From positions 1 to 24,523 of the IMG/VR virus record IMGVR_UViG_3300003086_000082: 24,523 bases of DNA. The stretch is one strand, 5' to 3'. The DNA is from a virus. Its lineage: Duplodnaviria > Caudoviricetes. How positions within the stretch are numbered: position 1 is the first letter of the stretch; each line of letters begins with the position of its first letter. This document shows positions 14,521 to 21,115 of the stretch, in pieces. The position numbers and the translations under genes are program-made. The notes under the pieces are model-generated. The model saw only the letters and a program-made list of their open reading frames with translations, was not told the origin of the DNA and searched no databases.

Positions 14521-14549
14521 TTTACTTATTGCAATTAGTATAGTATAAT
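14521..14549 (+). promoter_or_regulatory. Sigma70-type early promoter upstream of the porin-like gene
   Basis: TTTACT, 17 bp spacer, TATAAT (14544-14549). Confidence 0.8.
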
Positions 14550-14669
14550 ATAGGTATATGTACGAAAATTTAGTAGTATTTTAACTACTAACATTAGTAA
14601 AAATAACGTATATATATTAGTGGTTGATAATATTATCAAACCGTAATTTATTTAATTTAGGAATATAAG

Positions 14670-15536
14670 ATGAACAAGAAATATTTATTGGCAAGTTTAG
14701 TTGCCGCAACTTTTACTGCAAATGCTGTTGTAACCATGAGTGGTGATTATGAGGGAAAATTTACTGACGGATCTGGTGCTACTTATGCGCAAGACCTAGA
14801 CCTCACATTAGTTGGTTCAACTGCAGGTTCTAAAGTAACAGTTATGTTAGAAGATTTGACGGGTGGTACTGCTGTGACAACTAGCCAAGTATTTGTAGAA
14901 ACAAGTATTGAGGGCATTGGTTTGAAAGCAGGTAATTACAAGGGTCAAAATGGTGGTGGTTTACTACAAAGACAGACTGATGTAGCAAATCAATTTGAAA
15001 TTGCAGTAGATACAGGTTTTGCTGACGTTCATGTTGGTCAAGCATCAGGTGACGGTCATGCGACTGTAGACGTTTCTACAACCGTTGCTGGTTTTGGTCA
15101 TGTAAGTGTTCAAAACGTAAGTGCTACAGATCGTTTTGTTTCAGTTATTACTGAGTTCTTTGGTATTGGTGTAAATGCTGAAACGCAAAACACATCAGTT
15201 GGTCGTAATACTGCCGTGACTGCTAATGCTTTAATTGGTACGGAAAATGCCTTTTTTGAAGTGACTGGTATGGTTGTTGATGTTAATGACGCAACTGCTG
15301 TAACGCAAGATGATGGACTTCTTGGTGACATTTCAGACGCAGTAAATGGTAAAATTGTAACAGGTTTAGTCGTTGCTACTAACACGTTATATGGTACTGT
15401 AACTGGCAAACTTATTGATAAGAACGATAAGAATACATACGTTGCTGAAGTAGAGAAAGGTGTATTAACATTAGGATATGCTAAGACTGCAGACACAGAC
15501 GGTGTCGTTTCTGGTGAGATTAACATAGCATTTTAA
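14670..15536 (+). CDS. Outer-membrane beta-barrel (porin-like) protein
   Basis: Signal peptide ending ANA; Gly/Thr/Val/Asp-rich alternating strands; no Cys; C-terminal GEINIAF with terminal Phe (BAM beta-signal). Confidence 0.7.
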   Translation: MNKKYLLASLVAATFTANAVVTMSGDYEGKFTDGSGATYAQDLDLTLVGSTAGSKVTVMLEDLTGGTAVTTSQVFVETSIEGIGLKAGNYKGQNGGGLLQRQTDVANQFEIAVDTGFADVHVGQASGDGHATVDVSTTVAGFGHVSVQNVSATDRFVSVITEFFGIGVNAETQNTSVGRNTAVTANALIGTENAFFEVTGMVVDVNDATAVTQDDGLLGDISDAVNGKIVTGLVVATNTLYGTVTGKLIDKNDKNTYVAEVEKGVLTLGYAKTADTDGVVSGEINIAF

Positions 15537-15545
15537 TCTTAATTA

Positions 15546-15590
15546 GGGCATCGTAGACCTACTATAAACGTGGGTTTCTTTGCCCCTTTT
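15546..15590 (+). terminator. Long imperfect hairpin plus U-tract
   Basis: GGGCA/TGCCC outer stem; AGACCTAC/GTGGGTTT inner stem with G-U pairs; followed by CTTTT. Confidence 0.5.
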
Positions 15591-15690
15591 AAACTAAATC
15601 TATATAAGTATATTATAATATGTTTATATAAAGTAGTAAAGAGGTAATCCAACCCTCTATTAACGTTGGAAAATAATATAGGAGAATAAT

Positions 15691-16104
15691 ATGAAAAATA
15701 TTATCGCAGCATTAACAGTGCTTTTAACAGTAACATCAGCAAGTGCGTTCTTTAACGGAAACAATTCATGGGATAAACCATGGGGTAATAGTAATCAATA
15801 TCAAAATGATAACGGTTTCTTTGCTTATAACAGTTTTTCTTTCTTTGACCCACGTTGGTACTCAACTGAGTTTACTAACATGGTAAATGAGTTTGATGCT
15901 CCAGAGGTTCACTCTAAAGGTTATAAAGAAGACAACGGTATCTTTGCTTACAATGGCAATGATTTCTGGGATCCTCGTTGGTACTCACAAGAATTTACTA
16001 ACATGGTAAATGAAATTGATGATGAACGTAACACTCCAGCATACCAAAACCGCACGACTGTTAAAGACTTTCCAATTAACGATTTATTGACAATCAATAA
16101 ATAA
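15691..16104 (+). CDS. Secreted Asn/aromatic-rich protein with two internal repeats; candidate sulfur-globule-associated protein
   Basis: AGGAG RBS; signal peptide ending SASA then FFNGNNSWDKPWG; two DNGxFAYNxxxFxDPRWYSxEFTNMVNExD units; directly upstream of dsrA. Function is inferred. Confidence 0.55.
   Translation: MKNIIAALTVLLTVTSASAFFNGNNSWDKPWGNSNQYQNDNGFFAYNSFSFFDPRWYSTEFTNMVNEFDAPEVHSKGYKEDNGIFAYNGNDFWDPRWYSQEFTNMVNEIDDERNTPAYQNRTTVKDFPINDLLTINK
15808..16020 (+). repeat. Two 90-bp intragenic repeats (15808-15897 and 15931-16020)
   Basis: Shared DNA such as CGTTGGTACTCA and TTTACTAACATGGTAAATGA. Confidence 0.9.
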
Positions 16105-16126
16105 TATCTGGTAAGTAAGTAATACT

Positions 16127-16150
16127 AAGGAGTCGAAAGACTCCTTTTTT
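16127..16150 (+). terminator. Rho-independent terminator
   Basis: AAGGAGTC-GAAA-GACTCCTT followed by TTTT. Confidence 0.9.
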
Positions 16151-16218
16151 AGTATATTACTTTATAGTGTGTTGTGTATTACTTTAGGGGTATATTAGTG
16201 GTTTGATATATTAGGAAT

Positions 16219-16226
16219 TATAAATA
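16219..16226 (+). promoter_or_regulatory. T4-type late promoter upstream of dsrA
   Basis: Exact intergenic TATAAATA. Confidence 0.6.
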
Positions 16227-16239
16227 TACTAGATAAAAC

Positions 16240-19039: not shown

Positions 19040-19175
19040 GTGGTATGACCAACTTACAATGGGACAGAAAATGTCCTTGTGGGTTGAGTATAAAGCTGAG
19101 GGCGACTCGACTAATCAAGTTGTCGAAAGGGCATACAAACAATATTTAAAAACTTTTAAACTAGAGATATTATAA
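19032..19175 (+). CDS. Small hypothetical protein, 47 aa
   Basis: ATG 19032 overlaps the end of dsrA copy 2; TAATG coupling to iscU. Confidence 0.55.
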   Translation: MHEWYDQLTMGQKMSLWVEYKAEGDSTNQVVERAYKQYLKTFKLEIL

Positions 19176-19555
19176 TGGCATATGGACCAAAAGTATTAGA
19201 CCACTACGAAAACCCTAGAAATGTAGGGGTATTTCCAAAAGATGACCCAACAGTGGGTACTGGCATGGTCGGTGCTCCTGCTTGTGGTGATGTAATGCGT
19301 CTACAGATTAAAGTTGTAGATGACCTCATTGTAGATGCTAAATTCAAAACATATGGGTGTGGTTCTGCCATTGCAGCCTCTTCTCTTTTAACCGAGTGGG
19401 TTAAGGGTAAATCATTAGATGAGGCATCTGATATTAAGAATATTGAAATAGTAGAAGAGTTAGAACTACCTCCTGTTAAAATTCATTGTTCCGTATTAGC
19501 AGAAGATTGTATTAAGGCGGCAATTAAGGACTACAGAGAACATTGTCCCTCTTAA
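19175..19555 (+). CDS. iscU: Fe-S cluster scaffold IscU
   Basis: [46 protein letters not shown] (three Cys plus HscA-binding LPPVK). Confidence 0.95.
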
Positions 19556-19776
19556 TAACCGATGAGTGTATAAACTGTGATGTATGTGAACCAGAGTGCC
19601 CAAATGACGCAATATATTTAGGTGAGGAAATTTATGAAATAGACCCTGATAAGTGTACGGAATGTGTTGGTCACTTTGATACACCAACGTGTGCTTCGGT
19701 TTGCCCAGTAGATTGTTGCTTAACAGACCCAGATAATATAGAAACGGAGGAGCAATTACTTGCTAAACTAAGATGA
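19543..19776 (+). CDS. YfhL-like 2x[4Fe-4S] ferredoxin
   Basis: [12 protein letters not shown] and [21 protein letters not shown] start. Confidence 0.9.
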
Positions 19777-20099
19777 CAGCAGATATTGAATTTACTGATA
19801 ACGCATCTATAAAAGTGTCCTCTATGTTAGAGGGTGATAACGATAGTCATTTACGTGTCTATATAGTTGGTGGTGGTTGCTCAGGGTTTTCATATGGGTT
19901 CACGTTTGATAAAGAACATAAAGAGGGTGATAGCACGGTTATAAACAATGACGTGAGTCTTGTGATTGACCCTATGAGTTATCAATACTTAATAGGTTCT
20001 ACTGTAGACTATCTTGAAGATTTACAGGGGTCTAGATTTATTATAAGTAATCCAAACGCTAAGACGACGTGTGGTTGTGGGAGTAGTTTTTCAGTATGA
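19773..20099 (+). CDS. erpA: A-type Fe-S carrier ErpA
   Basis: [52 protein letters not shown]. Confidence 0.9.
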
Positions 20100-20416
20100 T
20101 AAGTATAACAGATGTAGGTGCGAAGAAAGCAAAGGAATTTTTAGAAAAAAGAGGTTCGGGGTTCGGATTAAGGGTATCAATAACGACTACTGGTTGTTCT
20201 GGGTATGCTTATAAGTTAGAGTTTGCGGATAGAGTAGAGGAAGAGGACTTAGAGTTTTTCTCAAATGGTATTAAATTAGTGGTGGATAAGAAATCACATG
20301 TACTAATAGATGGTACTGAGTTAGACTATGTCGTTAGTGGGTTAAATGAGGGGTTTGAGTTTTATAATCCTTTGTCTAAAGCAAAGTGTGGGTGTGGAGA
20401 AAGTTTTACAGTATAA
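20096..20416 (+). CDS. iscA: A-type Fe-S carrier IscA
   Basis: [46 protein letters not shown]. Confidence 0.9.
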
Positions 20417-20435
20417 TTTAACATAGGAGAAAGAT

Positions 20436-20660
20436 GTGGCAGACCAAGTATTAGATGCATCGGGACTTAATTGCCCAATGCCAATTTTAAAGACGAAGAA
20501 AGCATTAAGCAAAATGGATGCGGGGCAAATTTTAGAGGTTATCTCAACAGATGCTGGTTCAGTGAAAGACATTGAAGCATTCTGTAATCAAACAGGTAAC
20601 AAATTAATTTCAATTAACGAAGACGGTGGTAAATACGTCTTTACATTAGAACGAGTATAG
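20436..20660 (+). CDS. tusA: Sulfur carrier TusA
   Basis: LDASGLNCPMPILKTKKAL; STDAGSVKDIEAFC; GTG start with AGGAG RBS. Confidence 0.93.
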   Translation: MADQVLDASGLNCPMPILKTKKALSKMDAGQILEVISTDAGSVKDIEAFCNQTGNKLISINEDGGKYVFTLERV

Positions 20661-20668
20661 GAGATATT

Positions 20669-20761
20669 ATGAAAGAATTATATAACAAATGGGTAGATAA
20701 TTGTCCAGCACCAAAGGCATATAGATGGGTTAAAAGAGAAATTCAATCAAGGACACTTTAG
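20669..20761 (+). CDS. Small hypothetical peptide, 30 aa (not in ORF track)
   Basis: AGGAG RBS; MKELYNKWVDNCPAPKAYRWVKREIQSRTL; fills the tusA-dsrC gap. Confidence 0.55.
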   Translation: MKELYNKWVDNCPAPKAYRWVKREIQSRTL

Positions 20762-20770
20762 GAGAATAGC

Positions 20771-21115
20771 ATGGCAGATATATTAGGCGCACCAGTAGAT
20801 GAAGAGGGTTTCTTAACAAACCTTAAAGATTGGACACCAGAAATTGCAATTGAAATGGCAAAAGTAGACGACATTGACTTAGAAGATGAAAATGCTGAGT
20901 TATATCACGAGCGTTGGGATGTTCTTAATCTTTTACGTGACTACTTTGAAGAGTACCAAATCGCACCAGCAGTACGAGTATTGACTAAAGCAGTTGGTAA
21001 GAAACTCGGTAAGGATAAAGGTAAGTCAAAATACCTATACGTGTTGTTCCCTTATGGTCCTGGAAAGCAAGGTTGTAAGTTTGCTGGACTTCCGAAGCCA
21101 ACGGGTTGTATCTAG
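20771..21115 (+). CDS. dsrC: DsrC sulfur-carrier protein
   Basis: VDEEGFL..WTPEIA; APAVRVL; LFPYGPGKQGCKFAGLPKPTGCI with both C-terminal Cys (CX10C). Confidence 0.93.
   Translation: MADILGAPVDEEGFLTNLKDWTPEIAIEMAKVDDIDLEDENAELYHERWDVLNLLRDYFEEYQIAPAVRVLTKAVGKKLGKDKGKSKYLYVLFPYGPGKQGCKFAGLPKPTGCI

Follow-up and report, generated by a model that had tools for sequence, protein, structure and literature searches.

Two dsrA genes of separate SUP05 ancestry in the mosaic sulfur gene block of a T4-like phage

A sulfur gene block in a T4-like phage backbone

The virus record IMGVR_UViG_3300003086_000082 (24,523 nt; its full length is referred to here as the window) carries a block of sulfur-related genes that includes two adjacent dsrA genes, a secreted sulfur-globule-protein-like gene, genes for iron-sulfur (Fe-S) proteins, tusA and dsrC (Table 1). 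An earlier note on this DNA, made from the letters alone, described the block as contiguous and co-oriented, and the named open reading frames (ORFs) from 14670 to 21115 do all lie on the plus strand. Family scans found T4-type primase, topoisomerase II, RNase H, ligase, purM and phoH in the flanks, identifying the backbone as T4-like. The sulfur genes of the block are closest to those of SUP05 (Thioglobus-group) bacteria. The terminator-like hairpin at 16127-16146, the small ORFs at 19032-19175 and 20669-20761 and the linked gene at 21228-21482 were absent from the earlier note.

Table 1. Features predicted in and beside the sulfur gene block
Feature	Position	Strand	Remarks
Extended sigma-70-like promoter motif ahead of porin gene	14521..14549	+	Predicted early promoter
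Outer-membrane beta-barrel (porin fold), 288 aa	14670..15536	+	Signal peptide, C-terminal Phe
Stem-loop followed by T-run, between porin and globule-like gene	15546..15585	+	z -3.45
Secreted sulfur-globule-protein-like gene, 137 aa	15691..16104	+	Signal-peptide-like start, doubled core, short tail
Intrinsic-terminator-like hairpin	16127..16146	+	z -4.82; divides periplasmic genes from dsr block
TATAAATA	16219-16226	+	Adjoins second promoter motif
Second extended sigma-70-like promoter motif	16240..16268	+	11/12 match
dsrA copy 1	16348..17658	+	TIGR02064; lineage A type
dsrA copy 2	17681..19039	+	TIGR02064; lineage B type
47-aa ORF, overlaps dsrA2 stop	19032..19175	+	Where hosts have dsrB; no family
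iscU, Fe-S scaffold	19175..19555	+	TIGR01999 above cut-off; 78-83% to host copies
YfhL-type 2x[4Fe-4S] ferredoxin	19543..19776	+	NF033683 above cut-off; 79-88% to host copies
erpA, Fe-S insertion protein	19773..20099	+	NF010147 above cut-off; 68-80% to host copies
iscA-like A-type carrier	20096..20416	+	Passes TIGR00049; TIGR02011 130 vs 150.6, below
TusA, sulfur-oxidation type, CPxP	20436..20660	+	Passes PF01206, not NF001423
30-aa ORF between tusA and dsrC	20669..20761	+	Strong Shine-Dalgarno, TusA-like CPxP; no family
DsrC, both C-terminal cysteines (C-X10-C)	20771..21115	+	PF04358; TIGR03342 above cut-off; 93% to host L038
Small membrane-anchored or secreted Cys-containing protein	21228..21482	+	Travels with globule/tusA/dsrC module

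Two DsrA copies trace to two SUP05 host lineages

Both DsrA sequences passed the TIGR02064 cut-off of 392.85 bits (482.9 and 485.4), and they are 83% identical to each other over 433 residues. The dsrA1 frame is open from 16297, and its start at 16348 was taken from homologues. Using the motif list given by Kieft et al. 2021 (PMC8190135), we found CxGxxRC, KxKxKxxGCxNDC, CxxCxxC and HER in both proteins; the siroheme-[4Fe-4S] cysteines, the ferredoxin cysteines and the substrate-binding R/K/HER residues are complete in each. In trees, the window DsrA nest among the DsrA of SUP05 hosts, as expected of the oxidative rDsrA type.

The hosts fall into lineage A, on the side of Candidatus (Ca.) Thioglobus pontius, Ruthia and Vesicomyosocius, and lineage B, on the side of Thiodubiliella, the Bathymodiolus symbionts and SUP05 MAG-6. 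Copy 1 is 93.7% identical to host L068 and 83% identical to lineage B hosts, whereas copy 2 is 90.7% identical to host L036 and 83% identical to lineage A hosts; the same A/B identity split was found across 68 of 101 host-family genomes. At 30 diagnostic columns, defined by comparing 19 lineage A with 16 lineage B hosts, copy 1 carries 27 type A and 2 type B residues, and copy 2 carries 21 type B and 7 type A residues. The first DsrA tree was built with 21 of 95 rows (distant outgroups) left out, partial viral DsrA of less than 380 aa were excluded, and 32 chosen rows were used for bootstrap trees and for the approximately unbiased (AU) test. Sisterhood of the two copies was rejected by the AU test (p = 2.3e-7), as was a single clade of the four copies from the window and from phage L004 (p = 0.004). 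The tested pair was named after the first tree had been seen, and the pairing itself is the natural null. None of 200 bootstrap trees joined the two copies. Taken as sequence evidence, these comparisons show that the two dsrA genes descend from two SUP05 host lineages.

The same A-then-B dsrA pair is present in phage L004. Relative to their L004 counterparts, both window copies are under purifying selection, with nonsynonymous and synonymous divergence (dN and dS) of 0.038 and 0.67 for one copy and 0.066 and 1.08 for the other.

The earlier note held that dsrB, dsrEFH, dsrL and iscS are absent from the window, and no match to these families was found among its 41 scanned ORFs. This supports the view that dsrB and the others would be left to the host. 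Host DsrB splits along the same A/B line as DsrA (18 and 15 genomes, support 100), with 94% identity within and 86% between lineages at the 33 of 35 loci that were usable. The phage DsrA would pair with host DsrB, and carrying one DsrA per host type would let the phage match the DsrB of either lineage. We infer that such a match is the likeliest reason for keeping both genes, with dosage as a real rival.

Under that rival, the second dsrA is extra dosage or a passing recombination product between phages of different SUP05 hosts, and one copy works. Several points weigh on its side and against lineage matching. PMC8190135 tabulates a single dsrA on 33 of 36 scaffolds, and we found a second dsrA at only 1 of 22 other viral dsrA loci examined. 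The dsrA2 gene is itself partly mosaic, holding type A residues at 7 of the 30 diagnostic columns, and contigs from other runs hint, through short overlaps, at variants lacking one copy or with the two in the opposite order. Against dosage, the A-then-B pair is kept in L004 at the high dS and low dN given above for both copies, and the window copies are not being homogenized, because their synonymous difference is 0.59-0.88 along the gene. We regard dosage or recombination as a doubtful explanation, if a serious one.

DsrA1 and DsrA2 might instead pair with each other, replacing DsrB and forming a phage-only sulfite reductase. DsrA and DsrB are paralogues, both copies match the DsrB family TIGR02066 weakly, and PMC8190135, whose Discussion poses the reason as a question, reports that phage dsrB was never found. 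Each copy, however, is 90-94% identical to a host DsrA that partners DsrB and has kept the residues of its own lineage, and single-copy phages are the rule. Pairing of the two DsrA is accordingly judged very improbable. The match to host DsrB remains the preferred reading; with it, the DsrA pair would likely help the phage burn stored sulfur in either host. The pair bears on why phages carry dsrA without dsrB, the question left by PMC8190135, and on subunit compatibility as a limit to host range.

A secreted protein family probably related to sulfur globule proteins

The 137-aa protein had no family match, and homologues were found in SUP05. It contains two copies of an aromatic and acidic core (DNGxFxYN...DPRWYxxEF) behind an N terminus that reads, by eye, as a basic-hydrophobic-AxA signal and is conserved in the alignment. 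The structure model (pLDDT, 48.9) places one helix in each core; its confidence is low, and it was too poor for a fold search. The family is narrow, comprising 58 proteins among 1.84 billion representatives, one of them spurious. The spurious one, a 1026-aa profile hit (P0180), is an SprB repeat protein and was set aside.

Homologues occur in 68 of the 101 host-family genomes, namely, in 64 of 70 genomes classed as dsr-positive and 4 of 31 others; those 4 hold sulfur-type TusA and may be incomplete assemblies. In SUP05 genomes the homologues are clustered as paralogues. The UniRef name "Sulfur globule protein CV1" is attached to four cluster members of two host homologues, and most others are named "hypothetical." The globule-related identity proposed in the earlier note is supported by this host family, its distribution and the CV1 names. 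Ca. Thioglobus autotrophicus has periplasmic sulfur globules and four putative sgp genes; Sgp proteins are not labeled in the proteome table of that report (PMC6509183). Like those Sgp proteins and SgpA/B/C (CV1-3) of Allochromatium vinosum, the proteins of the family are small and of low complexity, have a signal-peptide-like start, are predicted to be periplasmic and belong to dsr-type sulfur storers (PMC10386293, PMC6509183); in vivo localization to globules was done for SgpD (PMC10386293). Unlike SgpA/B/C, the phage protein has no match to the Pfam sulfur globule family (PF17228), its tail is shortened and its core is doubled.

Other observations count against this identity. PF17228 matched none of 38 family members at E <= 1 and none of 12 host secreted proteins at E <= 0.5; a PF17228 search of five genomes gave no match anywhere, controls included. 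Atlas links to SGP clusters reached only 0.75-0.82 and serve as leads only, and the CV1 names are automatic. The host co-occurrence is largely a single lineage contrast, with 26 of the 31 dsr-negative genomes consecutively numbered. Homologues were found on 30 of 80 other viral contigs, a partly redundant set fetched by means of the island genes; 14 of these carry dsrA, dsrC or tusA in the fetched DNA, and the other 16 carry none of the three. In five other sulfur oxidizers, the globule profile gave no convincing match (best E, 0.0098), and comparison with the profile of a neighboring SUP05 paralogue gave 72.6% probability, partly due to the signal peptide. Weighing both sides, we consider an association of the 137-aa family with sulfur globules to be quite probable.

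The tails set the phage proteins apart. SgpA-C have Gly/Pro/aromatic-rich low-complexity repeats, and the window tail, with a G/N/P/Y/W fraction of 0.27, does not fit that pattern. Leaving out three rows that lack the core motif, phage tails have a median length of 26 aa and a fraction of 0.33 (n = 20), compared with 43 aa and 0.68-0.72 for host tails (n = 36); L007 is an exception among the phages, at 0.61. In a tree made without L033, L120, L121 and rows lacking a recognizable start, a branch with support 89 (unstarred) separates the 19 phage rows from the others. The exported protein would use its conserved core to bind the coat of the periplasmic globule and, without the structural tail, would loosen or remodel that coat. 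A loosening role rather than a plain coat role is possible, but we would put it at somewhat below even chances.

A second, unrelated secreted repeat family of SUP05 occupies the same slot at L005:5682-6038 and L145:11029-11406. Its members have GPF-rich repeats, are present in several copies per host genome, lie beside porin, dsrA or tusA, and also occur on the contigs of L006, L008 and L009; no family match or informative name was found for them. At L012:2871-3017, L018:9780-9938 and L020:5099-5245, a 48- to 52-aa protein with a signal-peptide-like start and a Gln/Met/Pro-rich tail is encoded directly before dsrA, beside the major head gene, and is possibly a third globule-type gene. Homologues of the 137-aa protein at L180, L181, L183 and L184 lie in non-T4-type neighborhoods (endonuclease, SSB), which suggests spread to other phage groups.

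Fe-S genes, TusA and DsrC

The relay and catalytic genes are intact in their motifs, which are complete in TusA and DsrC as they are in DsrA. Window TusA carries CPxP, the TusA active-site motif (PMC11094781), and is 74-89% identical to copies in 69 of 101 host genomes, and the host orthologue sits before dsrE2 (neighbor DrsE_2); both features identify the sulfur-oxidation type. DsrC ends in C-KFAGLPKPTG-C-I, matching the CysB-X10-CysA arrangement that defines DsrC rather than TusE (bioRxiv 10.1101/053090). In A. vinosum, sulfur is relayed from Rhd-TusA-DsrE2 through DsrEFH and DsrC to DsrAB (PMC11094781). The window resembles that relay in its CPxP-bearing TusA, its two-cysteine DsrC and the siroheme and substrate motifs of its DsrA, and differs from it in having no dsrB, dsrEFH, dsrE2, dsrL or membrane complex. 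Flanking host DsrEFH in this relay, TusA and DsrC would raise its capacity, and DsrA and other Fe-S proteins would receive their clusters from IscU, IscA, ErpA and YfhL with the help of host IscS.

TusA and the Fe-S genes could also serve needs of the phage itself, such as tRNA thiolation and Fe-S enzymes for DNA synthesis, merely sharing a slot for auxiliary metabolic genes (AMGs) with dsrA and dsrC. NifU, IscA, GrxD and TusA are grouped as Fe-S formation functions in PMC8190135, and other T4-like contigs likewise have Fe-S genes on the flanks of soxYZ and dsrC (bioRxiv 10.1101/053090). IscU shows no greater similarity to dsr-positive hosts than to dsr-negative ones, a point that tells against a sulfur-specific role, and identities did not resolve the donor host lineage of IscU and TusA. 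On the other hand, the host orthologue of TusA is the tusA-dsrE2 copy, the listed dsr-negative genomes gave no match as close, DsrC has both cysteines, and iscU is present on 13 of 23 dsrA contigs. We consider service to the phage's own needs unlikely and prefer a role in the sulfur relay and its cofactor supply.

Divergent one-cysteine DsrC/TusE-like genes were seen at L004:3005-3319, L149:8892-9179 and L007:3323-3502, near the globule-like gene or dsrA, either alongside the two-cysteine DsrC or replacing it.

The block is a mosaic with a diverged porin at its head

No family match was found for the 288-aa ORF. Its structure model (pLDDT, 83.8) forms a barrel of about 19 strands, for which Foldseek returned OmpM1 (E = 6e-8), and structural alignment to the Campylobacter protein MOMP gave a Z score of 18.9 and a root mean square deviation of 3.7 (269 aligned). 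It shares the beta-barrel, signal peptide and terminal Phe with OmpM1, MOMP and OccD/OpdC, is only 7-14% identical to known Gram-negative porins and, unlike them, has no Pfam match. Weak host matches were found in 37 of 101 genomes, and one host homologue matches Porin_4. By its modeled fold the protein is a porin, and the host matches place it as a predicted diverged phage branch of a SUP05 outer-membrane family. Of the 45 viral contigs on which the gene was found, 7 have dsrA, 14 have at least one of dsrA, dsrC and tusA, and 12 have the globule-like gene; these counts come from flanks limited to 10 kb, on many short contigs. This pattern speaks against a role tied to dsr. Rather than the sulfur-uptake step that the earlier note proposed, the porin likely serves the phage group in general envelope takeover, and nutrient influx or receptor masking may equally be its role.

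Phage-style promoters had also been proposed for the block. Between the motifs at 14521 and 16240, 18 bases are identical, and similar sites occur in the backbone at 699, 6416, 6880 and 23548. A generic promoter scan, however, was at chance level (49 found, 53.9 expected), as was the T4 late-promoter count (TATAAATA, 4 found, 4.3 expected), and the exact extended-promoter pattern gave no matches.

The close relatives L031 and L032, which have both flanks in common with the window, keep the porin and the globule-like gene; dsrA, the Fe-S genes, tusA and dsrC are all missing ahead of phoH. L026, L171 and L172 carry the globule-like gene, tusA, dsrC and ORF84 without a dsrA block between. All nine gene types are present at L005, L006, L008 and L009 in other orders or in two loci. 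We infer an insertion, in which an older module (globule-like gene, tusA, the CPxP microprotein, dsrC and ORF 21228) would have gained the two-dsrA and Fe-S block between the globule-like gene and tusA. The closest copies in host genome G001 sit at seven separate loci: dsrA at about 1,013 kb (dsrC lies 3.6 kb farther along), iscU-iscA at 358 kb, tusA at 591 kb, yfhL at 855 kb, erpA at 1,327 kb, the globule-like gene at 490 kb and porin-like genes at 822-825 kb. The description of the block as assembled by the phage agrees with this scatter.

The earlier note went further and read the block as one co-regulated pathway for uptake, storage, relay, catalysis and cofactor supply. The genes are adjacent and co-oriented, the promoter motif is common to 14521 and 16240, L005 likewise unites the globule-like gene, porin, dsrA, tusA and Fe-S genes, and the porin and globule-like gene co-occur on the 12 contigs noted above. 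A single program is nevertheless not supported, because the terminator at 16127-16146 and a second promoter precede dsrA1. The relatives L031 and L032 lack the dsr genes, few porin contigs have dsrA, L006, L008 and L009 hold the same gene types in two separate loci, and the barrel shows no sign of a sulfur substrate. One uptake-to-catalysis pathway was an overstatement and strikes us as quite unlikely; the block is better described as a mosaic with at least two predicted transcription units.

Contigs from other runs join the dsrA1 end to 20659, the dsrA2 end to dsrC, and the dsrA2 end back to the dsrA1 start (window 16304-20789). These rearranged joins, with overlaps of <40 letters, hint at single-copy or reordered variants. 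At L027-L030, a look at the sequence found an ammonium-transporter-like ORF directly after the globule module.

Conserved microproteins and small ORFs

The 47-aa ORF lies directly after dsrA in 6 of 6 viral loci found by alignment, one of them identical to the window, and several dsrA phages are without it. The CPxP pattern of the 30-aa ORF was found in 27 of 4,582 small ORFs from 88 viral loci, the pattern having been drawn from those same ORFs; 26 of the 27 (two of which repeat one contig) are no more than 356 bases away from dsrA, dsrC, tusA or the globule-like gene. Among 5,548 small ORFs of 133 host loci, the pattern occurred once, and a profile of the microprotein matched 5 of 101 host genomes, four of them convincingly. 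Our guess is that the 30-aa microprotein might carry persulfide. Host copies (L223, L224 and L226) lie beside a LysR-type regulator gene, possibly OxyR-like, or beside homologues of window ORF 21228-21482. The latter ORF is 30% identical to its SUP05 homologue at L226 (E = 8e-7).

Small unannotated ORFs at window positions 22029-22256, 21487-21840 and 21841-21966 are conserved near the dsr block in L004, L005, L006, L010 and L019, at 49-97% for the two longer ones.

Relation to the known phage sulfur cassette

The earlier note presented the full gene set as going beyond what had been described, and that claim does not hold: the same order is already tabulated. Phage dsrA and dsrC work by Kieft et al. 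2021 reportedly builds on that of Anantharaman et al. 2014. PMC8190135 reported both genes in phages, proposed the use of stored sulfur, and named NifU, IscA, GrxD and TusA as common neighbors of phage sulfur AMGs. Its table lists 39 dsrA genes on 36 scaffolds, with two consecutive dsrA on 3 of the 36. One of those scaffolds matches the window gene order from RNase H to phoH; in Supplementary Data 2, rows 2043-2067 read RNase H, ligase, purM, three blanks, dsrA, dsrA, blank, iscU, blank, erpA, iscA, tusA, blank, dsrC, five blanks and phoH. The cassette is thus on record at the level of a table, an outcome that the earlier note had named as counting against its reading, and as a plain gene list it adds little. 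The slots of the porin, globule-like, 47-aa, ferredoxin and 30-aa genes are unannotated there. In the searchable supplements of PMC8190135, "globule" and "sgp" have 0 occurrences and "porin" occurs once, on a different scaffold; separate origins of two dsrA copies are not discussed in the sections of that paper covered here. Searches at title and abstract level, with subscription journals outside their scope, found no report of phage-borne globule proteins or of two-copy dsrA. Within those searches, what the window probably adds is the DsrA pair from two SUP05 lineages, a trimmed globule-like protein family of phages and two conserved microproteins.

The sequence comparisons make it somewhat more probable than not that the block is an AMG hot spot of a T4-like phage that speeds host reverse-Dsr oxidation of stored sulfur during infection. 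A bolder and tentative reading, which we think rather improbable, is that the genes represent an unrecognized AMG class acting on the periplasmic sulfur store, in which a stripped coat protein would open the globule, the CPxP microprotein would ferry persulfide, and one DsrA per host lineage would drain either. Phage dsrA and dsrC are an established case of viral control of ocean sulfur cycling. If the bolder reading were true, the trimmed globule protein that phages have selected, seen on 30 viral contigs, would mark the part of the coat that controls access.

Continuity of the assembly

The earlier note suggested confirming read continuity from ligase to phoH. An assembled contig from run X2 covers 11013-15304 with 3 differences from the window, and X1 contigs cover 15545-16640, 21008-21974 and 21956-23333; X1 and X2 are possibly source samples and are not independent. 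Contigs from other studies bridge the joints (X5, 14409-15024; X17, 17598-17950 and 19958-20882), and no single assembled piece covers the whole stretch. The 20 runs listed are labeled as hydrothermal vent or marine metagenomes. Neither G+C content nor G+C at third codon positions (GC3) shows a step at the island edges, GC3 being 0.20-0.31 in island genes and 0.25-0.33 in the backbone. The check gave no sign of chimerism. A chimeric assembly of host and phage DNA would fit the summed depth over the dsr genes, which is far above that of the flanks, as expected if host contigs pile on. Against it stand the island's host genes, which are not adjacent in hosts, the backbone-like GC3, the bridged joints, and the relatives L031, L034 and L145, which have the same flanks. 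A chimera is largely refuted by these data and is, in our estimate, extremely unlikely. The window is a real, nonchimeric case of the known phage sulfur cassette type.

Runs X18 and X19 are probably DNA and X20 is RNA; all three were available as assembled contigs only. The listed X20 contigs over the island differ from the window (for example, in 17 of 209 letters over the porin gene) and come from relatives or hosts, so they are no demonstration of window expression.

Outside the block, a rhodanese-like ORF (PF00581, E = 8e-7) lies 11 kb upstream at window 2890-3306. It has no cysteine in the expected active loop, as placed by eye, and is probably not a sulfurtransferase. The 774-aa product of the ORF at window 4088-6412 has a PA14/GLEYA domain and is probably an adhesin or a tail-associated protein.

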